The notes beneath the pieces are model-generated. The model saw only the letters and a program-made list of their open reading frames with translations. It did no database searches and was not told where the DNA came from. From NCBI GenBank assembly GCA_016219285.1, contig JACRNJ010000010.1:36089-100088 (forward strand): a stretch of DNA of 64,000 bases. The letters are read 5' to 3'. Source of the DNA: Deltaproteobacteria bacterium (GTDB lineage: Bacteria > Desulfobacterota > GWC2-55-46 > UBA9637). Shown here in pieces: positions 4,368 to 58,176 of this stretch. The position numbers and the translations under genes were made by a program. The first letter of the stretch is position 1. The number at the start of each line of letters is the position of its first letter.

Positions 4368-5729
4368 ATGTATCTTTTCTACGACATCCTTCTTCACATC
4401 TCTCTCTTAATGCTTGCGCCGTATTTCCTTTTTAAGATGGCCTTTGCCGGGAAATATCGCAAGGGGGTTCTTGAAAGGTTTGGTTTTATAGGCGAAGAGA
4501 AACTTAAGAATCTTTACGACAAGAAAGTAGTTTGGTTTCATGCGGTTTCTGTTGGAGAGACAAAGGCGAGTATGCTGCTGCTGAAACATTTTAAAGAAAA
4601 ATATCCAGACGCAAAAATTATATTTTCCACTGTTACGGCAACCGGCAATGCAATTGCAATGAAGCAGGGGGCGCAATGGATTGACAGCCTTATCTATTTT
4701 CCATTTGACTTTCATTGGGTTGTTAACAGTGTTGTGAAAAGAATAAAACCAAAAGTTTTTATAGTAGTGGAGAAAGAGATATGGCCGAATATCCTCAAAG
4801 TCCTGAAAAAAAGCAATATTCCTGCATTGGTTATAAACGGAACCATATCTGACCGCTCCTTTAAGCGGTATAAAATGTTTGGATTTTTCTTTAAAAGGAT
4901 ATTCGGCAATATATCATGTTTTTTGTGCCAAACAAAAATGGACGGTGATAAGGCAATAGCCCTTGGAATAGAGCCTTCGAGGGTTATTGCTACAGGCAAT
5001 ATAAAATTTGATATAGAGTCTGCTCAGTGGAGCCCTTCTGAAAGGGATGTTGTTATGCGAGGGCTTAATATAACAGGCTATGATGATATCATTATTGCAG
5101 GAAGCACCCATGCAGGCGAGGAGGAGATTGTACTGGATGTTTTTAAAAGACTTAAGCAGGAGGTTTCAAATTTAAGAGTGATAATTGCGCCAAGACACCC
5201 GGAAAGGTTTAATGAGGTGGAAAGGCTTATAAAGGGAATGGGGTTTTCTATTACAAGAAGGTCTGTGATAAGAAGTCAGAAGCAAGAAGCAAGAAGCAAG
5301 AAGCAAGAAGCCCAAAAAAGTCTTGCCTCTTACCTCTTACCTATTGTCTCTCATCCGAAATCAGAAGTCATCCTTTTGGATACCATTGGCGAGCTTTGTA
5401 ATTTTTACAGTATTGCAACAATTGCCTTTGTTGGCGGCACCCTTGTAGATATCGGCGGGCATAATCTACTTGAGCCTGCCTTTTATAAGAAGCCTGTAAT
5501 TTACGGTAATTACCTTAAAGGCTATACTGGAATGGCAAATATGCTTGAAACAGCCGGCGGCGGCATACGAATAAAAAATGGAGAGGAATTTTTTGAGAAG
5601 GCGAAACAGCTGCTCATGGATGATGTATATAGCCAGAAGGTTGGCAGTGCGGCTTACAGCGTGGTTCTTGCCAACAAAGGCGCAACAGATAAATGTCTGA
5701 AGATTTTGGAAGGGTTATTTGGGGAATGA
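4368..5729 (+). CDS. waaA: 3-deoxy-D-manno-octulosonic acid (Kdo) transferase
   Basis: 453 aa. N-terminal membrane anchor, WFHAVSVGE motif, GT30-like C-terminal half. Lipid A/Kdo context. Confidence 0.9.
   Translation: MYLFYDILLHISLLMLAPYFLFKMAFAGKYRKGVLERFGFIGEEKLKNLYDKKVVWFHAVSVGETKASMLLLKHFKEKYPDAKIIFSTVTATGNAIAMKQGAQWIDSLIYFPFDFHWVVNSVVKRIKPKVFIVVEKEIWPNILKVLKKSNIPALVINGTISDRSFKRYKMFGFFFKRIFGNISCFLCQTKMDGDKAIALGIEPSRVIATGNIKFDIESAQWSPSERDVVMRGLNITGYDDIIIAGSTHAGEEEIVLDVFKRLKQEVSNLRVIIAPRHPERFNEVERLIKGMGFSITRRSVIRSQKQEARSKKQEAQKSLASYLLPIVSHPKSEVILLDTIGELCNFYSIATIAFVGGTLVDIGGHNLLEPAFYKKPVIYGNYLKGYTGMANMLETAGGGIRIKNGEEFFEKAKQLLMDDVYSQKVGSAAYSVVLANKGATDKCLKILEGLFGE
5272..5350. repeat. In-frame heptamer-array hairpin inside waaA
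   Basis: (AGCAAGA)x4 at 5281-5308, with imperfect complement tcttgcctcttacctcttacc at 5321-5341. Translated as RSQKQEARSKKQEAQKSLASYLLPIV. Confidence 0.7.
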
Positions 5730-9043: not shown

Positions 9044-10546
9044 ATGAAACGAATCATTGCATTGTTTATTATTTTATTTTTTGCCTTTCCTCTCGCATCC
9101 ATAGCAGGCGCGCCTGCGTGGTGGACACAAAAGAAACAAGAGTGCGGATTGCCTTCAAGTCTTGCTTACAACACATGGGAGTCGCAAGGCTCGCCGTGCA
9201 ATAAAAGCGGTAGTTCATCAAGCGGTAGTACGTCGTCAGGGGACTTGGGCAAGGCTCTCGGTCAGGCGCTTGGCAATGCGATAGCCGATTCGATACGCAA
9301 AAACAGGGAAGAGGCTGCCAGGCAAGCGGTAGAAGAGCAAGCCCGGGCCGCAGAGGAAAGCCGTCGCCAAGAGGAAGAGACGCTCAAATGGCACGAGGAG
9401 ATGAAGAACCGGCTCCTCGGCAACATGATGGGCGTCGGCGACTCATCACAGCTTGGCCTCATGGGTGCCGATTCCGGCTCCGGGCTTAGCCTGATGACCG
9501 ACGACCTTCAGGTCAGGGAAACCAGCGGCGCCTTTGGGCAAAAGGAATTAAAACCCATCATAGGAGACGATCAGACCACCTCGATCCACGTTGACACTTC
9601 GGTCGTGGATTTAAGCGACACGAGCTTGGCCGATGCCAACAAGGCTTTGATGAGGCATCAATGGGCTATGTCGATCGACCCGCGTTATATGGATGATCCG
9701 GCGGTACAACAATACATCCGCGACCTCTGGAAGAACGCTTCCTCCAAGGATGACGCAGAAGCAAAGATTAAATCAATTCTGGAGGATCAATTAAAGGTAA
9801 GCGGTCTGACCAAGCAACAGGTTGACGATTTTTTTGCCACATTCGACACATTCGTTACAGGACAAGGTCCCATGCCAAAAGGGTGGGGCAATGCGTCAAA
9901 GCTTGCGCATGAAATCGACGCCACAATAAATAATGACGCGTTGCAGAAGCCTTACTACGACACATTGTCAAAATCCTTGGGGAAAACCAAGAATATCAAG
10001 GCAGATGTTTCGTATATGGGAACTGGCCCGCAAACCTCGGAAGATTGTGTCCTGCATGCCATCTCAAATGGCGCGCAAGTGCCTTTGGCTCAAGTGAAGG
10101 CTCAGTTGGAACCCACCCTGAAAAGTCTGGCTATCGCCCGCAGCGAAGTTCGCAAAAACCCTGATCTTGCCGTCACCTCTCAGGACAAGGGCGGAACCGG
10201 CGGGCTGAATATTTTCGAGGAGATACTGATAGCCAAAAAAGTGGGCAATGTCATCGCGGTTCCCGATAAAAACTTTGCCAAGGCGATTGAAAGCACGGGC
10301 AGACCGGTCATTACCTCAGTCTTTATTGATGCCTATGACAAAAAAAAGAACCTCGTGAATATCGGCAATCACGAGGTTGCCGTCACGGGTGTTTATCGCG
10401 CGGAGAATGGCAAGGTCTACTACTCCGTTATGGATTCCAACTTAAAAAAGTATGCCAACTATACGGCGTATATAGAAAAGACAGATTTTGAAAATCATAT
10501 GTTATTTGGCGGTGGCTACGTTGTGATTCCAAGCGAAAAACATTGA
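9044..10546 (+). CDS. Secreted protein with Ser/Gly-rich and charged coiled-coil-like N-terminal half and a C-terminal papain-fold (C39-like) putative cysteine peptidase domain
   Basis: ATG 9044 after aggagg. Signal peptide MKRIIALFIILFFAFPLASIAG. Candidate catalytic residues are Q-x4-C (PQTSEDCVLHA), H (IGNHEVAVTGV) and D/N (SVMDSN), in the order and spacing style of C39/papain-like peptidases. Confidence 0.45.
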   Translation: MKRIIALFIILFFAFPLASIAGAPAWWTQKKQECGLPSSLAYNTWESQGSPCNKSGSSSSGSTSSGDLGKALGQALGNAIADSIRKNREEAARQAVEEQARAAEESRRQEEETLKWHEEMKNRLLGNMMGVGDSSQLGLMGADSGSGLSLMTDDLQVRETSGAFGQKELKPIIGDDQTTSIHVDTSVVDLSDTSLADANKALMRHQWAMSIDPRYMDDPAVQQYIRDLWKNASSKDDAEAKIKSILEDQLKVSGLTKQQVDDFFATFDTFVTGQGPMPKGWGNASKLAHEIDATINNDALQKPYYDTLSKSLGKTKNIKADVSYMGTGPQTSEDCVLHAISNGAQVPLAQVKAQLEPTLKSLAIARSEVRKNPDLAVTSQDKGGTGGLNIFEEILIAKKVGNVIAVPDKNFAKAIESTGRPVITSVFIDAYDKKKNLVNIGNHEVAVTGVYRAENGKVYYSVMDSNLKKYANYTAYIEKTDFENHMLFGGGYVVIPSEKH

Positions 10547-13868: not shown

Positions 13869-14066
13869 TACTAAAAAAATGGAATGGGTGATTCCACTCG
13901 CGGTTTTGCTCCGAAAATCTTCCTTCTCTGTCATTCCCGCATGTCTCAAGCGGGAATCCAGCCTTTTAAAACAATGGATTCCCGATAAAAGCACTCGGGA
14001 ATGACAACCGGGTTAATTTTCATCCCCCATTGTGAGCCAAGGGCTCATGGATGTTTCATTTAGAGC

Positions 14067-35916: not shown

Positions 35917-36306
35917 ATGAAGAGAAAGGCACATTACTCTGCAGAAAATAAATGTGTAGGGCTTTTGAGAAGGCTTCGGTGGCCCAGCGGGGTGAAATGC
36001 CCCAGATGTGATGGAGAGCATATTATAGGGGTTGGGCAGATGAGAACCTTTCCGGAACATAAACGTTATTACTGCTCCGGGTGTAGATATACCTTTTCCG
36101 ATACATCAATGACCCTGTTTCACGGCAGCAGGCTGCCTCTCAGCAAGTGGTTTGACGCTATCATCCTTGGGGCAAACGGCTCGTCAGCCATGGGTATTAA
36201 AAAAGAACTGCATATTACCTATAAGGCGGCATGGAGGATAAAGCATCTTATGGGTGAGGATTATCTTGTTCATGAGATAAGGCGAAGGTTGTTAAGAAAG
36301 GGTTAA
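35917..36306 (+). CDS. IS1595-family transposase N-terminal region only (zinc ribbon + HTH), no catalytic domain
   Basis: 129 aa. LRWPSGVKCPRCDG...YYCSGCRYTFSDTSMTLFHGSRLPLSKWF is the IS1595/ISXO2-like N-terminal pattern, and the DDE part is absent. The stop codon lies in the target duplication of the adjacent MITE. Confidence 0.6.
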   Translation: MKRKAHYSAENKCVGLLRRLRWPSGVKCPRCDGEHIIGVGQMRTFPEHKRYYCSGCRYTFSDTSMTLFHGSRLPLSKWFDAIILGANGSSAMGIKKELHITYKAAWRIKHLMGEDYLVHEIRRRLLRKG

Positions 36307-36392
36307 ACCCCGTTAGAAGCTAGCCTATAAAAAAACTGTTTGCTTCCAACAAGGACTTGTCTGTGGGAGGAAAAGTTTCTAACGGGGTTAAA
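36303..36392. mobile_element. 80-nt MITE with 14-bp TIRs, flanked by TTAAA direct repeats (intergenic copy)
   Basis: ttaaa-CCCCGTTAGAAGCT...AGTTTCTAACGGGG-ttaaa. Core 36308-36387. Confidence 0.8.
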
Positions 36393-36424
36393 TATAAAAG
36401 AAGGAGGTGAAATAATTATTTTCA

Positions 36425-36490
36425 TTTACGATTTACGAATTACGATTTAAGATTTTAAATTCCTCAATCTGAAATCGTAAATCTCAAATC
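36425..36490. repeat. Inverted heptamer-array hairpin (TACGATT-type) upstream of nirS
   Basis: tttacgatttacgaattacgatttaag ... ctgaaatcgtaaatctcaaatc. Confidence 0.65.
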
Positions 36491-36510: not shown

Positions 36511-38151
36511 ATGTTAGTTCAATACAAGAAAAGAGTAATGGCGGCAATTGAGAAAGTGGTAATGTCAGTAGTCTTGTCTGCTCTTATGATAATAGGCGCA
36601 GCTTACAATGCTCAGGCAAACCCAGACTTAACACCTGAGGAGCTTATGAAGGCAAAAGGCCTGTATTTTAACAGGTGTGCCGGATGTCATGGAACATTAA
36701 GAAAAGGCGCTACAGGACCTAATATTACCGATGTAAATCTAAAACAGAAGAATTACGACACAAACATAATAAAGGCATTTGTTACTAATGGAACCGGCGG
36801 CGGTATGCCGAGCTTCGGCAGTGACTTTTCTGCTGAGGATATAGAGCTTATAGCGAACTTCCTCCAACAGGCGCCTCCTGCCCCGCCAGAATTTTCACTG
36901 GCAGAGATGAAGGAGACATGGAGGCTTATAGTCCCGGAGGCTCAAAGACCAAAAAAACCTGAGCATAGCAGAAATTGGCAGAATTTTTTCGGCATTGTCC
37001 TGAGAGACGCTGGCAAGGTGGCTATACTTGATGGAGATACCAAGGAGCTTGTAAGTGTTGTAGATACAGGTTTTGCGGTGCACATACTCCGTTCCTCTGC
37101 GTCAGGCAGATACTTTTATTCCATAGGAAGGGACGGCAAGTCAACCATGATTGATTTATGGATGGCAAAACCTGACAAGGTGGCAGAGGTAAAGACATGC
37201 TATGATGCGAGAAGTATAGACTCCAGCAAATATAAAGGTAAAAAGGGGAATTTTGAAGATAAGCTGGCTATAGTTGGATGCTACTGGCCGCCTCATTTTG
37301 TGGTCATTGACGGTCAGACCCTGGAGCCTAAAAAAGTAGTAAGCACCAGGTCTTATTCATACGATACAAACGAATATATAGCTGAGGCGAGGGTTGCCGC
37401 AATTATTTCTGCGCATAAAGAGCCTGAGTGGATAATCAATATTAAAGAGGCCGGTTATATATGGGCCATTGACTATTCTGATATAAAGAACCTCAAGATT
37501 ACACAGGTAGAGACCGAAAGATTTCTGCACGATGGCGGGTGGGATGCAAGCAAGAGATATATCCAGATGGCAGCCAACATGAGAAACAAGATGGTAATTG
37601 TGGACAGCGAGACAAAGAAGCAGATTGCCCAGATAGAGACAGGCAATAAACCACATCCTGGCAGGGGCGCAAACTGGACAGACCCTGAATTTGGCCCGGT
37701 TACGGCTACGCCGCATCTCGGAGAAGGTCTGGTTGCTGCGTGGGGCAGTGATCCAAAAGGTCATGCTAAAAATGCGTGGAAGGTTGTAAGAAAGGTAGAA
37801 ACACTTGGCGGCGGCGGTCTGTTTGTAAAGACTCACCCAAAGGCAAAGCATGTGTGGGTTGACCATACCTTAAATCCTGATGACAAGATAAAGAGGAGCC
37901 TCTGTGTCTTTGACAAAAACGCCCCTGGCGAAAAGGCGCAGTGCTGGCAGGTCGCTGACCATGGCAGGGTTGTGCATCTTGAATACAACAAGGCAGGCAA
38001 TGAGGTATGGGTTGCTGTGTGGGATAAGGCGGGAGAGATTGTAATCTTTGATGATAAGACCCTGAAAGAGAAATCAAGGATTAAGGGAGATTGGCTTGTA
38101 ACGCCTACAGGCCATTTTAATGTCTATAATACAATGACGGATACTTACTAA
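36511..38151 (+). CDS. nirS: Cytochrome cd1 nitrite reductase
   Basis: 546 aa. Signal peptide, heme c site CAGCHG in the N-terminal domain, then a long d1 beta-propeller region. RBS aaggagg. Followed by heme d1 maturation genes. Confidence 0.88.
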   Translation: MLVQYKKRVMAAIEKVVMSVVLSALMIIGAAYNAQANPDLTPEELMKAKGLYFNRCAGCHGTLRKGATGPNITDVNLKQKNYDTNIIKAFVTNGTGGGMPSFGSDFSAEDIELIANFLQQAPPAPPEFSLAEMKETWRLIVPEAQRPKKPEHSRNWQNFFGIVLRDAGKVAILDGDTKELVSVVDTGFAVHILRSSASGRYFYSIGRDGKSTMIDLWMAKPDKVAEVKTCYDARSIDSSKYKGKKGNFEDKLAIVGCYWPPHFVVIDGQTLEPKKVVSTRSYSYDTNEYIAEARVAAIISAHKEPEWIINIKEAGYIWAIDYSDIKNLKITQVETERFLHDGGWDASKRYIQMAANMRNKMVIVDSETKKQIAQIETGNKPHPGRGANWTDPEFGPVTATPHLGEGLVAAWGSDPKGHAKNAWKVVRKVETLGGGGLFVKTHPKAKHVWVDHTLNPDDKIKRSLCVFDKNAPGEKAQCWQVADHGRVVHLEYNKAGNEVWVAVWDKAGEIVIFDDKTLKEKSRIKGDWLVTPTGHFNVYNTMTDTY

Positions 38152-38163
38152 AAATTAGGATAT

Positions 38164-38216
38164 GGGATGTGGGAAGTGGGATGTGGAAAAAATCGCGTCC
38201 CACAAACCACACATCC
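38164..38216. repeat. Inverted heptamer-array hairpin (GGGATGT-type)
   Basis: gggatgtgggaagtgggatgtgg ... tcccacaaaccacacatcc. A related arm lies at about 54485-54530. Confidence 0.65.
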
Positions 38217-38240
38217 AATAAATCAAACAAAGGAGAAAAC

Positions 38241-38786
38241 ATGAAAAGGATATTTTTATCAGCATTAGCAGCGGTAATGATTTTAGCAGTAATGACCGGC
38301 GGTAGTTTTGCGGCAGAAAAAAAGGGAGCAAAGGCAGCAGCTTCTGCAGAAAAGGCGCCCTCAAATTACTGGGACAAATGGACAAAGACAATATCCCTGG
38401 ATATATTTCCTGACTGCGGTGTGAATGTGCTCGGCGCAGGCGGGGATGACATATTACAGGCTACGGTGGATATCTACTGCGGTGTAAAGCCAGGCGGATA
38501 TGTAGGCTATGTCAATCCGAAAGTGCACGATATCTACAAGAAGAAGGGCAGCAAATATCCTGACGGTAAAACCGCTGTTCTTGTGTTTAAAAAGATTGGC
38601 GCTGCATTTACAACCGACCATAAAGACGGCCAGCCGATTTACGATGTCGTTGCCATTAAAGACGGCAAATCAATTGCATCAAAAGATGCAGGCCATCCAT
38701 TAAACCCACAAACCTGCGCTAAATGCCATGTCGGTTTTAAGGATGTATGCAAAAAGTTGGGTTATCTCTGCGGCAACAGGCTGTAA
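38241..38786 (+). CDS. Small secreted mono-heme c-type cytochrome, CxxCH near the C-terminus (beta-rich; P460 / c'-beta-like topology?)
   Basis: ATG 38241 after aggag. Signal peptide ...GGSFA-AE. Single CAKCH about 20 residues from the C-terminus. The body looks beta-strand rich. Confidence 0.5.
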   Translation: MKRIFLSALAAVMILAVMTGGSFAAEKKGAKAAASAEKAPSNYWDKWTKTISLDIFPDCGVNVLGAGGDDILQATVDIYCGVKPGGYVGYVNPKVHDIYKKKGSKYPDGKTAVLVFKKIGAAFTTDHKDGQPIYDVVAIKDGKSIASKDAGHPLNPQTCAKCHVGFKDVCKKLGYLCGNRL

Positions 38787-38861: not shown

Positions 38862-40385
38862 ATGAAGAAAAATTTTACTCTTATTGCTGCATTTATAATC
38901 TTTACAACCGGTCTTGCAATGGCTGATGATGGCAAAGGACTTTATATGAAACACTGCGCATCCTGCCACCATGTTGAAAGATATGGCCTAAAGGCCCCGG
39001 CCTTAATACCGGAAACCTTGAAGGCATATAAAAATGAGGAGCTTGCAAAGATTATAAAAGAGGGTCTTCCGGCAAGCCAGATGCCGCCGTTTAAAGAACT
39101 TTTGGCAGACGGCGATATTGATAAAATCATATCTTACATAACCCTGCCTCTGAGCAATGCCAGATGGACAAAGGAAGATATTGTAAAAAGCAGAGAGGTT
39201 TTTACAGAACCTGCGCATCAAAAACCAATATCCAATCTTGACTATGAAAATATCACACTGGTTGTAGAAAGCAGCAGAAGCATAACAGTTATGGATGGCA
39301 ATAATTTTAAATCATTAGATAAATTTCAGGCAGGGGCCATTCACGGCGGACCTAAATTCTCTTATTCGCTCCGTTACATATATGCCCCGACAAGGGACGG
39401 CGTAATAACAAAATACGACCTTTATACATTGAAAAAAATTGGAAGCGTAAAAACTGGCATAAATACGAGAAACATAGCCATCTCTGATGATGATAAATGG
39501 GTGGCTGCAGCCAACTACTTGCCCAGTAATATTGTATTTTTAAATGATGAATTAACCCCAACTTATGTTTTAGAAACCTCAGGAAAGATAGGAGGGATAT
39601 ACACTCTGATTTCAGAAAAAAAGTTTGTATGCGCTTTTAGGGATGTGCCAAATCTATGGCTCATAAATTATACAAAGGGTTTTGAAATAGAAAGTCTTGC
39701 CCTGCCTGAGCCATTTGAAGATATATCAATAAATCCATTTGAAGACATTATTATCGGCTCTTCAAGAAAAGGGACCAGAATTTATATTTACAGTTTAAAA
39801 CAAAGAAGGGTTGTAAACAACTTTGAAACAGACGGTATGCCGCACCTTGCCTCAGCCACATACTGGGTTGACCCCGTTAGAAGCTCGCCTATTGATAAGC
39901 AGTCTACTCTCAATACAAACTTGTCTCCGATTGAGAAAGCTTCTAACGGGGTTGACAAGGGTGTGCTTTACACCGCTATAAATCACCTGAAGAGGCCTGT
40001 TTTAACTATTCTGGATTTGAATAGCGGGAAGGTAGTTAAGGAGATTAGTCTTAATGGGGCAGGTTTTTTTGTAAGGACGCATCAGAATACGCCGTTTATC
40101 TGGGTTGATACAAATACAGATGCAATCCAGATTATAGACAAAGCCGCACTTCAGGTTGTAAAAACGCTTGTTCCATCAAAGGGTAAAAAGGCTATGCACA
40201 TTGAATTCACAAAGGACGGAAGATATGCAATGGCCAGCATTTATGAGGAAGAAGGATCCCTTGTAATCTATGATGCGGTTACCCTGACTGAGATAATGAG
40301 AATACCGCTCAGGAAACCTGCCGGCAAATATAATGCGTTGAACAAAACATATCCAAAGATACAGGCAAGAGGCGATGGGCTATAG
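38862..40385 (+). CDS. nirN: NirN-like heme d1 maturation protein (c-type heme domain + cd1 beta-propeller)
   Basis: 507 aa. Signal peptide, CASCHH heme c site, propeller domain homologous to the NirS d1 domain. Position between nirS and nirJ. Carries the 84-bp MITE insertion. Confidence 0.7.
   Translation: MKKNFTLIAAFIIFTTGLAMADDGKGLYMKHCASCHHVERYGLKAPALIPETLKAYKNEELAKIIKEGLPASQMPPFKELLADGDIDKIISYITLPLSNARWTKEDIVKSREVFTEPAHQKPISNLDYENITLVVESSRSITVMDGNNFKSLDKFQAGAIHGGPKFSYSLRYIYAPTRDGVITKYDLYTLKKIGSVKTGINTRNIAISDDDKWVAAANYLPSNIVFLNDELTPTYVLETSGKIGGIYTLISEKKFVCAFRDVPNLWLINYTKGFEIESLALPEPFEDISINPFEDIIIGSSRKGTRIYIYSLKQRRVVNNFETDGMPHLASATYWVDPVRSSPIDKQSTLNTNLSPIEKASNGVDKGVLYTAINHLKRPVLTILDLNSGKVVKEISLNGAGFFVRTHQNTPFIWVDTNTDAIQIIDKAALQVVKTLVPSKGKKAMHIEFTKDGRYAMASIYEEEGSLVIYDAVTLTEIMRIPLRKPAGKYNALNKTYPKIQARGDGL
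39868..39955. mobile_element. Same 80-nt MITE, in-frame copy inside nirN, flanked by TTGA direct repeats
   Basis: ttga-CCCCGTTAGAAGCT...AGCTTCTAACGGGG-ttga. Core 39872-39951. 80 + 4 = 84 nt = 28 codons, translated PVRSSPIDKQSTLNTNLSPIEKASNGVD. Confidence 0.8.
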
Positions 40386-40467: not shown

Positions 40468-41715
40468 ATGCTGGGCGTTACAAAACTTTTATGCGAAACC
40501 ATGACGACGGAGAGAGGTGTTGCCGGTAAAGGGCACGGTCACGGCGTATCTCCAAGGCTTCTCCAGTTTTCAGAAGTCAAGAGACCCATCGTTGTCTGGA
40601 ATATTACCAAGAGATGCAACTTGAGGTGTATTCACTGTTACTCCGATTCACTCAATCAGGATTATCAGGGTGAATTGATGACCGAAGAGGCAAAGCAGGT
40701 AATAGACGACCTGGCTGGTTTTGGGGCGCCTGTTATAATCTTTTCAGGCGGCGACCCGCTTTTGAGAAATGATATATTTGAAATTGCAAACTATGCAGGC
40801 TCAAAGGGCATAAGGTGCGCGCTATCCACAAATGGTGTTTTGATAGACAAGGCAACTGCAAAGGCGATTAAGGATGCAAACTTTGCCTATGTTGGTGTGA
40901 GTATAGACGGCATTGGTGAATTTAATGACAGGTTCAGGGGTATGATTGGCGCTTATAATATGGCATTAGAAGGCATACGAAACAGCAGAGACGCGGGTGT
41001 GAGGACAGGCCTGCGTCTTACCCTGAATAAGAGGACACTGCCTCAGCTTCCGGCCATATTTGATTTGGCAGAGGCGGAAAACATCCCCAGGGTTTATATA
41101 TCACATCTTGTATATGCAGGTCGTGGAAATAAAATTAAAAAGGATGATTTAAGCCATGAAGAGACAAGGAAGGCATTGGATTTCATATTTGAAAAGGCAA
41201 TTGAATTTCATCAAAAGGGATTAGAGAAGGATGTGCTTACAGGCAATAACGATGCAGATGGAGTTTATCTTTATCTCAAAGTAAAGAGAGAAGATGAAGC
41301 AAAGGCTGAAAAGATTTACAAGCTTTTAAAGATGAGGGGAGGGAACAGCTCAGGCACTGCCATTGGCTGTATTGATAATATAGGCAATGTGCATGCAGAC
41401 CAGTTTTGGAGCCGCTACTCATTTGGCAATGTGAAAGAGAAAACCTTTAGCCAGATATGGACAGACACAAAAGACCCTGTCATGTGCGGGCTTAAGAATA
41501 AAAAAGAGTCTGTAAGGGGCAGGTGCGGCCACTGTTCATATCTTGATATATGCGGTGGAAACTATAGGGTGAGGGCAGAGGCAATATATGGAGATGTATG
41601 GGCAGAAGACCCTGCTTGCTATTTGGCAGACGAGGAAATAGGGATAAAGAGGCAGGCAATAGGCAATGGGCAAGAGGCAATAGGAGAAGAGAAACGATAT
41701 GCAGAAATTGTATAA
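40468..41715 (+). CDS. nirJ: Heme d1 biosynthesis radical SAM protein NirJ
   Basis: 415 aa. CNLRCIHC radical SAM cluster motif, C-terminal Cys-rich auxiliary cluster region (CGHCSYLDICGG). The last ~25 residues are encoded by a GGCAATR heptamer array (41651-41684). Confidence 0.85.
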   Translation: MLGVTKLLCETMTTERGVAGKGHGHGVSPRLLQFSEVKRPIVVWNITKRCNLRCIHCYSDSLNQDYQGELMTEEAKQVIDDLAGFGAPVIIFSGGDPLLRNDIFEIANYAGSKGIRCALSTNGVLIDKATAKAIKDANFAYVGVSIDGIGEFNDRFRGMIGAYNMALEGIRNSRDAGVRTGLRLTLNKRTLPQLPAIFDLAEAENIPRVYISHLVYAGRGNKIKKDDLSHEETRKALDFIFEKAIEFHQKGLEKDVLTGNNDADGVYLYLKVKREDEAKAEKIYKLLKMRGGNSSGTAIGCIDNIGNVHADQFWSRYSFGNVKEKTFSQIWTDTKDPVMCGLKNKKESVRGRCGHCSYLDICGGNYRVRAEAIYGDVWAEDPACYLADEEIGIKRQAIGNGQEAIGEEKRYAEIV

Positions 41716-43006
41716 AAAAAATATTCAAGGTAGTTGCCGATTTATCGGCGTTTTTAAACCTGTCCCCGCAGGCTTTAAGCGTGGATACGCCCATAAATGG
41801 GCAGCTACAATTTTATTTGCATGTTTTAGCCTTTTAATATTCTCAAAGGCCATAGCATTTGCCGCAGACAAGGATGCTTACGGCACTGCCTCTTTAATGG
41901 TGATTGTTGAAAGAGAGGCAGGAAGTGTGATTGTTATTGATTCTTCAAGGCATAAATTATTAGGCCGGATTTCGAATCTTGGCAATCTCATACATGCTAC
42001 CGTCAAGTTTTCAAAGGATGCAAGGTTCGCCTATGTGATAGGCAGGGATGCATCCGTAAGCAAGATAGACCTGTTGAAATTAAAACTTGTGAAAAAGGTG
42101 AGGGCAGGGGATGACTCTGTAGGCGGCGTAATGACTCAGGACGGCAAATATGTCGCCCTAAGCAACTATGTGCCGGGCGAGGTCAGAATACTTGATGCGG
42201 AGACATTGGAAACAGTAAAGATAATTCCGGCAGAGAGAGAGTATCCTGACGGCAAAAAAATAGCGGCAAGGGTTGTCGGCCTGGTGGATGCGCCTGGAAA
42301 TCTCCTTGTATTTTCAATGATGGATAATGACGGAATATGGGTTGTAGATGCAGGCAAAAAGGATTTTCCAGTAACAAAGAAATTCTGGGATATTGGCGAA
42401 ACTCCCTATGACGGGCTTATAACCCCTGACGGCAGATATTATATCTCAGGCCTTTTAAACTCCAATTGGGTTGGACTTCTGGATATTTGGGATATGACAG
42501 AGGTTAAAAGGATTTCAACTATAAAGACGAAAGATGCGAGGGGGACAGGAGAAGATATTGTCCCTTTGTGGAAGATACCGCATCTAAAAGGATGGGCTAT
42601 TGCAGGCGATTACGCAGTGATTCCTGCTATTAAGAGAGAGGTGGCATTGGTTTACAATATAAGGGATTGGAGCATAATAAAGGAAGTGCCTCTGGTTGGC
42701 ACTGCGCTCTATACAGTTGCAGGCCCTGATGGAAGATATGTGTGGGTTGATTTGGTCGGAAAGAACGGAGACACAATTCAGGTTATAGACCTTAAAACCC
42801 TTGAGGTTGTAAAAACCTTTTCGCCGGGTAAAGGCGCAACCCATCCCCAGTTTACGCCAAAAGGCGATGCGGTTTATATATCGTTGATGGATGAATACAA
42901 GGTGGTGGTTTATAATCCGGTTACTTTTGAAAAGATAACAGAATTTCCGGCGGAAAAACCGTCAGGCATATTTTCAACAGAAAGGGCGCATAAGTTTGGC
43001 ATGTAA
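41699..43006 (+). CDS. nirF: NirF-like cd1 beta-propeller protein without heme c
   Basis: 435 aa. Signal-like segment AATILFACFSLLIFSKAIAFA, propeller homologous to the NirS/NirN d1 domains, no CxxCH. The N-terminal ~35 residues are encoded by a composite repeat element. Confidence 0.7.
   Translation: MQKLYKKNIQGSCRFIGVFKPVPAGFKRGYAHKWAATILFACFSLLIFSKAIAFAADKDAYGTASLMVIVEREAGSVIVIDSSRHKLLGRISNLGNLIHATVKFSKDARFAYVIGRDASVSKIDLLKLKLVKKVRAGDDSVGGVMTQDGKYVALSNYVPGEVRILDAETLETVKIIPAEREYPDGKKIAARVVGLVDAPGNLLVFSMMDNDGIWVVDAGKKDFPVTKKFWDIGETPYDGLITPDGRYYISGLLNSNWVGLLDIWDMTEVKRISTIKTKDARGTGEDIVPLWKIPHLKGWAIAGDYAVIPAIKREVALVYNIRDWSIIKEVPLVGTALYTVAGPDGRYVWVDLVGKNGDTIQVIDLKTLEVVKTFSPGKGATHPQFTPKGDAVYISLMDEYKVVVYNPVTFEKITEFPAEKPSGIFSTERAHKFGM
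41730..41808 (+). repeat. GTAG...CTAC composite element carrying a PAGFK hairpin module, inside the nirF 5' coding region
   Basis: GTAG-ttgccgatttatcggc-gtttttaaa-cctgtccccgcaggctttaagcgtgga-tacgcccataaatgggcag-CTAC. Confidence 0.8.
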
Positions 43007-43848: not shown

Positions 43849-43889
43849 TTCATGCTGAAAATGCCCATCTGCTGCGGTTTCTGCGTTCA

Positions 43890-43959
43890 ACCCTTGACAA
43901 AGCTGTCCTTGGCCAAAGCCAAGGGCTTGCCTTTGGCAAGCCACAGATTTGTCAAGGGT
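43890..43959. repeat. Composite palindrome closed by ACCCTTGACAAA / TTTGTCAAGGGT with two inner hairpins
   Basis: Outer 12-bp inverted repeat. Inner ccttggc-caaa-gccaagg and gcttgcc-tttg-gcaagc hairpins. Confidence 0.8.
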
Positions 43960-43969
43960 CAACATACCT

Positions 43970-44053: not shown

Positions 44054-44143
44054 GCCTTGCCCTTGACAAACTATCTCCTTTGCCAAAGGCAAAAGAGTTT
44101 TGTGTTTTGCTTCGTAAAAACACATAATTTGTCAAGGGCTTGC
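44054..44143. repeat. Second CCCTTGACAAA / TTTGTCAAGGG composite palindrome
   Basis: gccttgcccttgacaaa ... atttgtcaagggcttgc with inner hairpins (cctttgcc-aaa-ggcaaaag; tgtgtttt...aaaacaca). Confidence 0.75.
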
Positions 44144-56160: not shown

Positions 56161-58176
56161 TATGGTTGGATCAGGAATAAATGCTGGCCGCCACTCATTG
56201 ATTTCCAGATGGCGGCGGATTTCCTGCTCAAATCCTTCTGGTATATCGTAATATGTCCTGATAAAGAGATTTATATCAGCAGGCAACGGTTCTTTTTTAC
56301 CCGCGCAAAGCTCTATATAGTTTTTTAATTTTATTTTCCTGCCTTCTGTCGTGTCGTTAGGCCTGATACAGAGTTTAGCTGCAAGAGGCAGGGCTTGCTC
56401 AATAGTTTCAGCAAAACATAAAAGGTGTTGCGGCGCAGGGCCTGTTGGGACTATATCCCCGAGTCTCGTATCCTTTACCTGCCAGAGTCTATCCTGCCCG
56501 ATAAGGTGAATACCATAGTTTTTGAACATCGGCCCGAAGATAACAGGGATGCCGAGCCTTGCCATACCCAGCGCAGAAGAGAATGCCTTCTGCGTGAATG
56601 CGCCCCAGAGTATTACTACTGCGCCAACCCTGTTTATTATATAGTCTGCAATTTCTTTGTAATTATTCTCCGGTTTTCTGTGGCACATTATCTGGGCGAT
56701 TTTTATGCAGGCCCCGATAAGATGAGAAGCAGATACACATGAACCAAGATTTGTTAGGTTTCTGCTGTCAAAAGAGTCAGGATTGTCTTTGAACAAATCT
56801 CCTTTTGCAACATCCATTGAGGCACAGCCGCCAGTGGAAACAATATATCCCCTATTTAGAAATTCTCGGGCAAACATATTAGCAATTGAATCTTCTGGCT
56901 TCTGACTTCTGACTTCTGACTTCTGACTTGCCTCCGGACATCCAAATATCCCTACAATTCCGGGAATCTCACCCATCACAATAGACGGCGCAACTCCCCT
57001 TATTTCACCATCTCGTATAGGGCCGCGGCCAATCCGTAAAAAAGAGTTCGGGGTTCGGAGTTCGGAGTTCGGAGTTTTACTGCCTGCTGCCCCCTGCTTA
57101 AAGCCTGCAGGGGCAGGCCCCTGCCCACTGCCTACTAACTTCAATGCTGCCTCTGCTGCCTTTTTCTTATCCAGAATAATACCCGTCCCATTCTTCAAAA
57201 TATATTCTGACGACTTGTCCAACGGCATGTCCGTTAAATCTCTAAGTCCAAGCGCCGTCTCTTGTGTTGTTGCAATAAGCATACTATTAACCTTACCCGC
57301 CTCGGCAACCACATCCGGCCTTATGCACTGTGTGTCCATAATAACAACATCCGCAATGCCTGATTTAATAACATCCAATTGCATAGCCTGATTGCCTATT
57401 ACCTTAAAACCATGACTATGCCTCGCTGAATCTGATGCTGCACAGCACAGGCCGCAGACCTCCACCTTATCCTTAATACCTCTACTTTCAAGAAGGTGCA
57501 TAATTTCATGGGCAACAGATGAGTTGTGACCAATTATAAGTATTACAGGCTTTGATGTATCAACAGTTTCTAATCCGATAGCTATTATTGGCGAATTGGA
57601 TTCGCCCTTTGGCATGTTCATGGCAGATATCTGCGCAATGTCTGCCACTTCCATGGCAAGGTTATCCAGCATACCTGCATGAAGCGTCTTGCTTACAAAA
57701 TCATCAGGGGATGCCTCTGTGCCGAAGTTTATGGAGGAGAGGAGGTGATTTAACTGGCCTTCTATATAGGTAAGAATATTTCTCAACTCACCCATGTTTT
57801 TTGGCTTACAGCCTGTTATAAGCGTTGTGATTGGAGTTGCTATAGCGGTATGCAGGCCGGTATCTACACGACACTCTTTATCGAACCTGTCTATTAAGTT
57901 TTCTATAAGTCTTACAGCGTGAGATGTATGACCCGATGTTCCTATAACAGCATCTAATAAAATCTCTCTTGCCTTGAAACCAGTTTCATCAATGCCGCAT
58001 TTTCCAACCCCCCCTCCCCCCCCCTTTGTTAAATGGGGGGCAGGGGGGGTTGGCCTGCACGGCCCCATGGCACACAGGTGGCAGGCCTTATTAGACTTTG
58101 AAAATATTGGCAGGTATCTTTCAAGCAGGGTTAAATCCCAGTCTCTTAAATCAAATATATCTAAATATGGTTTCAT
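56155..58176 (-). CDS. Ni-CODH (CooS)-like protein, prismane/CODH family, carrying several repeat-derived in-frame inserts
   Basis: 673 aa. The following line up with CooS B- and C-cluster regions: C-x2-C-x4-C (CHLCAMGPCR) then KCG, GTSGHTSHA, IIGHNSS, CGLCCAA, MDTQCIRPD, GGCASMD, LGSCVSA. Enzyme specificity not established. Confidence 0.55.
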   Translation of the reverse strand: MKPYLDIFDLRDWDLTLLERYLPIFSKSNKACHLCAMGPCRPTPPAPHLTKGGGGGVGKCGIDETGFKAREILLDAVIGTSGHTSHAVRLIENLIDRFDKECRVDTGLHTAIATPITTLITGCKPKNMGELRNILTYIEGQLNHLLSSINFGTEASPDDFVSKTLHAGMLDNLAMEVADIAQISAMNMPKGESNSPIIAIGLETVDTSKPVILIIGHNSSVAHEIMHLLESRGIKDKVEVCGLCCAASDSARHSHGFKVIGNQAMQLDVIKSGIADVVIMDTQCIRPDVVAEAGKVNSMLIATTQETALGLRDLTDMPLDKSSEYILKNGTGIILDKKKAAEAALKLVGSGQGPAPAGFKQGAAGSKTPNSELRTPNSFLRIGRGPIRDGEIRGVAPSIVMGEIPGIVGIFGCPEASQKSEVRSQKPEDSIANMFAREFLNRGYIVSTGGCASMDVAKGDLFKDNPDSFDSRNLTNLGSCVSASHLIGACIKIAQIMCHRKPENNYKEIADYIINRVGAVVILWGAFTQKAFSSALGMARLGIPVIFGPMFKNYGIHLIGQDRLWQVKDTRLGDIVPTGPAPQHLLCFAETIEQALPLAAKLCIRPNDTTEGRKIKLKNYIELCAGKKEPLPADINLFIRTYYDIPEGFEQEIRRHLEINEWRPAFIPDPTIL
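56892..56930. repeat. (TTCTGAC)n heptamer array inside the CooS-like gene
   Basis: cttctgacttctgacttctgacttctgactt. Sense-strand translation SQKSEVRSQKPE. Confidence 0.8.
57044..57078. repeat. (GTTCGGR)n heptamer array inside the CooS-like gene
   Basis: gagttcggggttcggagttcggagttcggagtttt. Sense translation KTPNSELRTPNS. Confidence 0.8.
57089..57119 (-). repeat. PAGFKQG hairpin element, copy e (in frame in the CooS-like gene)
   Basis: The reverse complement is ggcctgcccctgcaggctttaagcagggggc, identical to the secA copy. Confidence 0.85.
58004..58053. repeat. C-run/G-run hairpin in frame in the CooS-like gene
   Basis: ccaaccccccctccccccccctttgttaaatggggggcagggggggttgg. Sense translation PTPPAPHLTKGGGGGVG, located between the CxxCxxxxC motif and the next Cys. 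Confidence 0.7.

Follow-up and report, generated by a model that had tools for sequence, protein, structure and literature searches.

A short inverted-repeat element in frame within a nirN-type gene, with relatives in many bacterial genomes

The locus described here raises the question of how a segment bounded by inverted repeats came to lie within the reading frame of a nir gene, and whether the protein encoded by that gene withstands its presence. We analysed a 64,000-nt stretch of contig JACRNJ010000010.1 from a Deltaproteobacteria bacterium (hereafter the window, meaning the whole of that stretch), in which a MITE (a transposable element of the miniature inverted-repeat kind), with its terminal inverted repeats (TIRs) and target-site duplication (TSD), lies within an open reading frame (ORF) of the nirN type; a second copy is intergenic. 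Our reading, to which we give a probability of about 85%, is that both elements are real MITE copies and that the one in nirN is carried as a tolerated loop of the protein.

Two copies of one element in a nir cluster

The features on which the argument depends are the following, with positions counted in the window.

38862-40385, + strand: host gene of NirN type (cytochrome c plus cytochrome d1 beta-propeller), 507 aa, intact ORF
39868-39871: left TSD of the nirN copy, TTGA
39872-39951: MITE copy in the nirN-like ORF, 80 nt, making 28 codons with one TSD copy
39872-39885, + strand: left TIR of the nirN copy, CCCCGTTAGAAGCT, translated P-V-R-S
39938-39951, + strand: right TIR of the nirN copy, AGCTTCTAACGGGG, translated A-S-N-G
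39952-39955: right TSD of the nirN copy, TTGA
36303-36307: left TSD of the intergenic copy, TTAAA, which includes the TAA stop of the ORF at 35917-36306
36308-36387: second MITE copy, 80 nt, between a 129-aa zinc-ribbon ORF and nirS
36388-36392: right TSD of the intergenic copy, TTAAA

The two copies, each of 80 nt and 3.5 kb apart, align in the same orientation. The TIRs of the nirN copy are complementary at 14 of 14 positions (15 of 15 with the next base) and those of the intergenic copy at 13 of 14, with one mismatch in the right arm (AGTTTCTAACGGGG), and the repeat in the flanks grows to 8 nt when the terminal Gs of the element are included (GGGTTGAC, GGGTTAAA). Compared with shuffled controls, the nirN copy forms a strong predicted hairpin on the + strand (z = -5.1) and on the other strand (z = -6.7), as does the intergenic copy on the + strand (z = -4.3). 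With up to two mismatches allowed, the TIR 14-mer occurs four times in the 64-kb window where 0.25 occurrences are expected, and none of 100 shuffles gave four, which argues against a chance palindrome. The initial annotation had reported two 80-nt copies with TIRs and with ttaaa/ttaaa and ttga/ttga flanks at these positions, and had taken them for a genuine transposition footprint; both statements hold, the elements showing the TIRs, the TSD, the small non-coding size, the multiple copies and the empty-site polymorphism of a MITE.

The host gene and its additional loop

The host ORF matches Pfam PF13442 and PF02239, the d1 match being split in two, and carries near its N-terminus a CASCHH motif of the CXXCH type of c-type cytochromes. 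Its best relative in the PDB is NirN of P. aeruginosa (6RTD, E 4.5e-94), 6RTD and 6RTE being the sole PDB matches at E <= 1e-20, and the alignment with 6RTD is interrupted at query residues 337-371, exactly at the insertion. Judged by its propeller domains, its PDB relative and its location in a nir cluster (in the order nirS, 205-aa ORF, nirN, nirJ, nirF), the predicted protein is of NirN type. NirN is the dihydro-heme d1 dehydrogenase, built of an N-terminal c-type cytochrome and an eight-bladed cytochrome d1 propeller.

The target GTTGAC stands in codon phase 1 and the insertion introduces no stop. Since 80 nt and one 4-nt duplication make 84 nt, the frame is kept and 28 codons are added, the translated junction reading ...SATYWVD-PVRSSPIDKQSTLNTNLSPIEKASNGVD-KGVLY; translation and structural model thus bear out the earlier statement that 28 residues had been added in frame within the beta-propeller region. 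All residues invariant across 22 aligned NirN-type homologues are kept in the window protein. In an AlphaFold2 model built on that 22-sequence alignment, with a mean per-residue confidence (pLDDT) of 81, the propeller mostly exceeds 90 whereas residues 339-366 fall below 50. These residues lie between strands 327-336 and 369-375, adjacent strands of one blade, the first of which begins at the invariant MPHL motif. As modelled, the insertion is a floppy beta-turn excursion, separated from the conserved histidine by the length of a ten-residue strand, and the geometry of the propeller suggests that it is directed away from the heme d1 pocket.

NirN with the loop is most likely still functional, tolerated rather than inactivated, because the ORF and its invariant residues are intact and the loop is a low-confidence segment between propeller strands, because a second lineage keeps the insertion open despite a decayed TIR, and because copies of the same family lie in frame in essential genes elsewhere (see below). 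For the nir cluster itself the consequence would then be small. The insertion would mark a permissive site in NirN, and the locus, known both with and without the element, offers a clean example from nature of a beta-propeller enzyme that has gained a loop from selfish DNA.

Empty sites in related genomes

The closest relative found, L121, is a metagenome-assembled genome (MAG, GCA_016214995.1) labelled Deltaproteobacteria, whose nirN is 89% identical to that of the window at the nucleotide level. In L121 and in a second relative, L122, the nirN site is empty and clean (TGGGTTGATAAGG, in the context ...TACTGGGTTGATAAGGG...; site context ...TACTGGGTTGA/CAAGGG...), and in L121 the intergenic site is empty as well (GGGTTAAATATAAAAG, in the context ...AAAGGGTTAAATATAAAAGAAGG...), so that the empty nirN site for which the initial annotation advised looking in relatives does exist. 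The flanks of the window element are 92-97% identical to the empty L121 locus right up to the element.

At the protein level, the 28-residue segment is found in two of the 120 homologues listed, the window protein and P0004, and these two alone carry it in the alignment of 22; the two closest relatives, P0002 (90% amino acid identity) and P0003 (83%), are without it. Occupancy is therefore patchy: the window and a nirN of 76% identity have the element at this codon, and nirN genes of 89% and 85% identity are empty there. The second filled gene, that of L120, which encodes P0004, contains the same element at the same codon between TTGA/TTGA duplications, with two mismatches in the right TIR; its ORF is open and every residue invariant in the 22 homologues is kept. 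It had been held that a homologous segment in orthologues from unrelated organisms would speak against a transposition. Such a segment is present in P0004, but it is there the same element in the DNA, with its TIRs and TSD, and mobility is thus not refuted.

Another in-frame hairpin insertion was seen near the N-terminus of NirN (TTTCCCTGC...GCAGGGA), of 54 nt in L121 (about 10090-10150) and 27 nt in L120 (about 5090-5120). It adds FSLLNTPDGIIRGQAGRD-like residues directly before the CXXCH motif, is also found in P0011 and P0012 and is absent from the window at about 38950. It is unrelated to the MITE and similarly patchy over the tree.

A wider family of elements

When one genome of each species was scanned, CCCGTTAGAA and TTCTAACGGG separated by a gap of 45-72 nt were found at 119 genome loci at least, in hosts that are mostly MAGs and belong to Patescibacteria, Planctomycetota/Pirellulales, Deltaproteobacteria, Nitrospirae and others. 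The ends of these elements are conserved over 10-11 nt and their interiors are highly diverse, with sizes from 30 to 139 nt, mostly 66-92. Across 139 copies the flanks follow the register R-TNNA-Y/CCCG...CGGG/R-TNNA-Y, in which the outermost Y/R pair is part of the TIR and not of the target, and in 71-74% of copies the two middle bases of TNNA are the same on both sides, a pattern characteristic of target duplication over 4 bp. The target proposed earlier, TTRA, accordingly gives way to TNNA for the family. The exact 14-nt TIR of the window was found at 27 metagenome loci, where the duplications are mostly perfect 4-bp ones (TCAA, TGAA, TTTA, TTCA, TGGA, TAAA, TTGA, TCCA), with a single 5-bp duplication, TATAA. 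Most copies of the family have a 4-bp TSD; the intergenic copy of the window and L125 have one of 5 bp. Further copies, which the initial annotation had suggested seeking in the genome, are found in many other genomes and metagenomes.

Some family copies with partial TSDs occur in IMG/VR viral contigs (L156, L157, L160, L161); L153-L155, L158 and L159 have the same 10-nt ends, show no TSD and may be unrelated. In Patescibacteria there are subfamilies of 66-72 nt with GC-rich interiors (L003, L023, L024, L033, L034, L044, L045, L083, L089, L099, L107, L116), whose inner hairpins, compared by eye, appear to change on both sides (for example CTCTCG/CGAGAG versus CTGCCG/CGGCAG), which suggests a conserved fold of the element. 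A twister-like ribozyme was considered for this GC-rich subfamily and found no support in Rfam, which gave no match on nine loci with structured copies. In the window itself, Rfam 15 gave no family at gathering score, and the two copies gave sub-threshold microRNA-hairpin matches only.

Full-text literature searches for the TIR strings returned unrelated primers only, and a search on MITEs in candidate phyla radiation bacteria returned nothing relevant. The family does not appear to have been described, in that its cross-phylum ends, its single frame, its start-codon sites and the recurrent nirN codon are unreported in the literature searched. The event in nirN is in itself ordinary and of modest novelty; the regularities of the family, which we turn to here, merit a survey.

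Long ORFs contain 22 of 142 copies, and about 13% of the copies overall. All 18 in-ORF copies examined, that of the window included, are read in the same frame, as Pro-Val-Arg-Ser/Asn ... Ser/Thr-Ser-Asn-Gly, with the flanking codon pair (Val/Ile, then Asp/Asn/His) duplicated. The third frame is shut by the TAG and TAA of the TIR; the second is open about as often as the first. RTNNAY targets occur 2.3 times as often in the codon phase that was observed, a bias that predicts a share of 70%, so that 18 of 18 has a probability of about 0.002. Among the in-frame copies are the following.

L044:3443-3508: in DnaE (DNA polymerase III alpha)
L025:2207-2236: in IF-2, a 30-nt mini-copy
L080:4374-4445: in a class II aminoacyl-tRNA synthetase
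L132:7954-8033: in an R3H protein
L139:3211-3290: in a DUF362 protein

A conceivable splitting of a gene was seen for 7 of 170 copies. As judged from their reading frames, the genic copies that survive are those that keep the frame and would be translated.

The family is also found at start codons. Of 336 element ends, 46 (about 27% of copies) adjoin an ATG or GTG with which an ORF of 100 aa or more begins, this codon being duplicated in the TSD in the manner ATGAAT/element/ATGAA... (for example L001:1309-1383, L032:4316-4391 and L056:1181-1256). As start-like sites make up 0.7% of RTNNAY sites, element ends are enriched about 20-fold at start codons. In the commonest class, of 76 nt, worked through by hand, a frame starting from the upstream ATG would be closed by the TAA in the right TIR, which stands 4 nt ahead of the real ATG.

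Alternative explanations

The initial annotation had left the choice between a tolerated loop and a recent inactivation, of which we favour the former. Inactivation is the most probable of the competing explanations, at odds that we consider low: the 28 residues, placed eight residues after the MPHL histidine motif, would cripple NirN in an ORF that has so far escaped decay. The insertion could be young, since both the TIRs and the TSD of the window copy are perfect and the site is empty in the nearest relative, and it follows the invariant stretch M326-P327-H328-L329...W335. However, L120 shares this insertion, its TIR having decayed while the ORF is open and all invariant residues are kept; in the model the full length of a 10-residue strand separates the loop from the histidine; and family copies lie in frame in DnaE, IF-2 and aminoacyl-tRNA synthetase of small genomes. 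A tolerated loop is much more likely.

It is improbable that the element has been exapted as a regulatory hairpin (an attenuator, an RNase site or a protein-binding site) tuning nir expression, even though strong hairpins are predicted on both strands, one copy stands 123 nt upstream of nirS, and the nirN copies are more alike than the neutral sites of their gene. The nearest relative is without either copy in an otherwise identical locus, the window and L120 copies have different interior hairpins and diverge uniformly over codon positions, and no terminator-like or promoter-like site coincides with the copies.

Still less credit can be given to an intervening sequence excised from the transcript at the hairpin in the manner of an intron, or bypassed by the ribosome between the duplicated GTTGAC codons, leaving a mature protein without the 28 residues. 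A perfect hairpin flanked by identical in-frame codon pairs would be apt for this, as would the copies in essential genes. Length and stops would then be irrelevant, yet all the copies in long ORFs are open and divisible by three, and all lie in the sole frame that avoids the TAG and TAA of the TIRs; this keeping of the frame argues against RNA-level removal and against bypass alike. Only the seven copies mentioned look potentially gene-splitting, there is no stop after the would-be take-off codon, and Rfam gives no ribozyme or intron match. A native, immobile NirN loop or chance palindrome, for which the homologous segment of one other orthologue could be cited, has a negligible chance, given that this orthologue has the same TIRs and TSD in its DNA, that 118 of the 120 homologues listed lack the segment, and that the empty sites, the second copy and hundreds of TSD-bearing relatives refute it.

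A proposed mobilising enzyme

The elements would be moved in trans by a cut-and-paste DDE enzyme, which we infer to be of IS1380/piggyBac type from ends that start with CCC and from duplications of 4-5 bp with T...A as outer bases; the second MITE family of the window, with CCCTTGACAAA ends and 4-bp duplications, shares this design. Among the bacterial insertion sequence (IS) families of the ISfinder family table, we take the combination of 'CC' ends with a 4-5-bp duplication to point to IS1380. The two members retrieved, ISEcp1 (starting CCTAGATTCTACGT) and IS1247 (starting CCCACATTTCCC), both begin with CC, and CCCCGTTAGAAGCT likewise has the CC/CCC end, with duplications of 4-5 bp. The TIRs of piggyBac start with CCCTT/CCCTC and its duplications are TTAA, occasionally TCAA or TAAA; IS1380 is its prokaryotic outgroup (PMC10813416), and excision by piggyBac is precise (references cited within PMC10813416).

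No IS1380-like ORF was found in 1.1 Mb of family loci by tblastn, phmmer or a hidden Markov model built from ISEcp1, IS1247 and an Alicyclobacillus relative, a single weak tblastn match being antisense to an 876-aa ORF. A search of all loci and the window for TIR half-sites paired 0.4-3.5 kb apart with matching TNNA flanks gave nothing convincing. The two inverted copies of L011 were considered as an autonomous element and rejected, since they flank an Ig-domain gene and no transposase; L085 is a cluster of small family copies. Were a transposase to be tied to the family, bacteria would have a system whose ends resemble those of piggyBac and whose excision may be seamless. In genomes of uncultivated bacteria it would also give rise, time and again, to errors of annotation such as odd loops and false N-terminal extensions.

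History of the nirN insertion

Several observations weigh against our reading and are gathered here. The autonomous partner that was sought on the advice of the initial annotation, an element with these same TIRs, is present neither in the window nor in the 1.1 Mb of family loci, and as no transposase was found the IS1380/piggyBac assignment rests on end sequence and duplication length; we do not claim membership. The enzymatic function of NirN with the insertion is a prediction from sequence. Finally, identity between the nirN copies of the window and L120 is 82.5% overall and 77% within their 52-nt interior, against 76.5% for the host genes as a whole and 54.8% at their four-fold sites. As the copies are more alike than the four-fold sites, a single old insertion followed by losses misfits the clock, and, with TNNA as the target, it is improbable from the outset that one codon was hit twice independently.

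Any other copy, the intergenic one of the window included, reaches at most 63% interior identity. The identity of the two nirN insertions is even across codon positions (82/89/79%), which is unlike protein-level selection. In a neighbour-joining tree the window protein groups with P0002 and P0003, and then with P0005, P0006 and P0008, P0004 lying outside them. This topology requires, for one gain, at least four clean losses, or else two gains at one codon, which would come from closely related master copies. Acquisition of the filled allele as a recombination patch from an L120-like donor was considered and rejected, as L121-like flanks reach up to the element and no such patch is visible.

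Either history requires seamless excision or a marked site preference. Seamless loss could proceed through transposase-mediated excision, or through slippage at the hairpin from one 8-nt flanking repeat to the other; alternatively, a closely related master copy could have inserted a second time. The pattern of filled distant and empty closer relatives is compatible with seamless excision and also with repeated insertion. It is conceivable, if rather doubtful, that the CCCGTTAGAA elements form a cross-phylum MITE superfamily with piggyBac/IS1380-like ends, which enters and leaves seamlessly and persists harmlessly as a one-frame loop or a start-codon duplication. If this were true, the filling of the nirN codon in two lineages would imply either site-specific re-insertion or frequent footprint-free excision.

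The upstream ORF and other features of the window

The neighbouring genes are the following.

35917-36306: 129-aa ORF with an IS1595-type zinc ribbon and no transposase domain
36511-38151, + strand: nirS-like cytochrome cd1 gene, downstream of the intergenic copy, intact
38169-38786: 205-aa ORF between nirS and nirN, no Pfam match, intact
40468-41715, + strand: nirJ-like radical SAM gene, intact
41699-43006, + strand: nirF-like d1-propeller gene, intact

The 129-aa ORF had been called an IS1595-like ORF, and the intergenic element had been thought to provide the context of its stop codon; neither view is upheld. The ORF consists of a zinc ribbon alone and occupies the same place upstream of nirS in the element-free L121, so that it is neither an IS nor a partner of the MITE, and has the look of a small protein of the host, not of an IS remnant. 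Its TAA stop lies in the left TSD and is shared with the empty site of L121, and it therefore pre-dates the insertion.

The stretch at 36424-36482, which separates the intergenic MITE from nirS, contains ATTTACG-like heptamers in series and an imperfect palindrome; L121 conserves it, and it may serve as an operator. In the position of the 205-aa ORF between nirS and nirN, L120 and L121 have ORFs of 166 and 185 aa. Downstream of nirF there is a second MITE-like palindromic family with ends CCCTTGACAAA...TTTGTCAAGGG, at 43891-43958 and 44060-44138, flanked by the repeats TCAA (43887-43890, 43959-43962) and CTTG (44056-44059, 44139-44142); its design, with CCC ends and a 4-bp duplication, is that of the nirN element. 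Elsewhere in the window, a 78-nt palindrome at 13929-14006 (TGTCATTCCCGC...GGGAATGACA) may represent another repeat family, and at 58004-58053 there is a palindrome of a C-run and a G-run (CCAACCCCCCCTCCCCCCC ... GGGGGGCAGGGGGGGTTGG), 95% complementary.

Comparison with known systems

The REP/BIME sequences (associated with RAYT, or TnpA-REP) and elements of the IS200/IS605 type resemble the present family in being short, abundant, hairpin-forming and mostly intergenic. REP/RAYT and IS200/IS605-type elements, however, make no target duplication and have GTAG/CGTC tags or subterminal hairpins (PMC3733652). Identity with them is ruled out by the TSD, the true TIRs, the 80-nt size (REP palindromes are of 20-40 nt) and the lack of a GTAG/CGTC end tag. 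The attC sites of integrons are imperfect palindromes of similar size with GTTRRRY/RYYYAAC-like words, of which GTTAGAA and TTCTAAC in the TIR are reminiscent; here, however, the word order is reversed, and the elements have direct duplications, form no cassette array and lie within genes.

Further likenesses are those to IS1380 (ISEcp1, IS1247) and piggyBac, which share the CC/CCC ends and the 4-5-bp duplications. The TIR of the nirN family is unalignable with those of ISEcp1 and IS1247 beyond the first bases, and its target is TNNA and not the TTAA of piggyBac, whose seamless excision would nonetheless suit the clean empty sites.

In their behaviour within genes, the Rickettsia palindromic elements (RPEs) and other intragenic bacterial MITEs (ERIC, QMITE1 and the Anabaena MITEs) offer a parallel, being in-frame, translated gene insertions; intragenic palindromic insertions of this kind are thought to occupy surface loops and to spare function (PMC10969869). 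The nirN element is, like them, short, palindromic, in frame and, as predicted, translated. It differs from RPEs, to which it has no known sequence relationship, in that its family has sharp TIRs and a 4-bp TNNA duplication, is smaller (30-140 nt), extends over several phyla and not one genus, and is read in one frame within ORFs.

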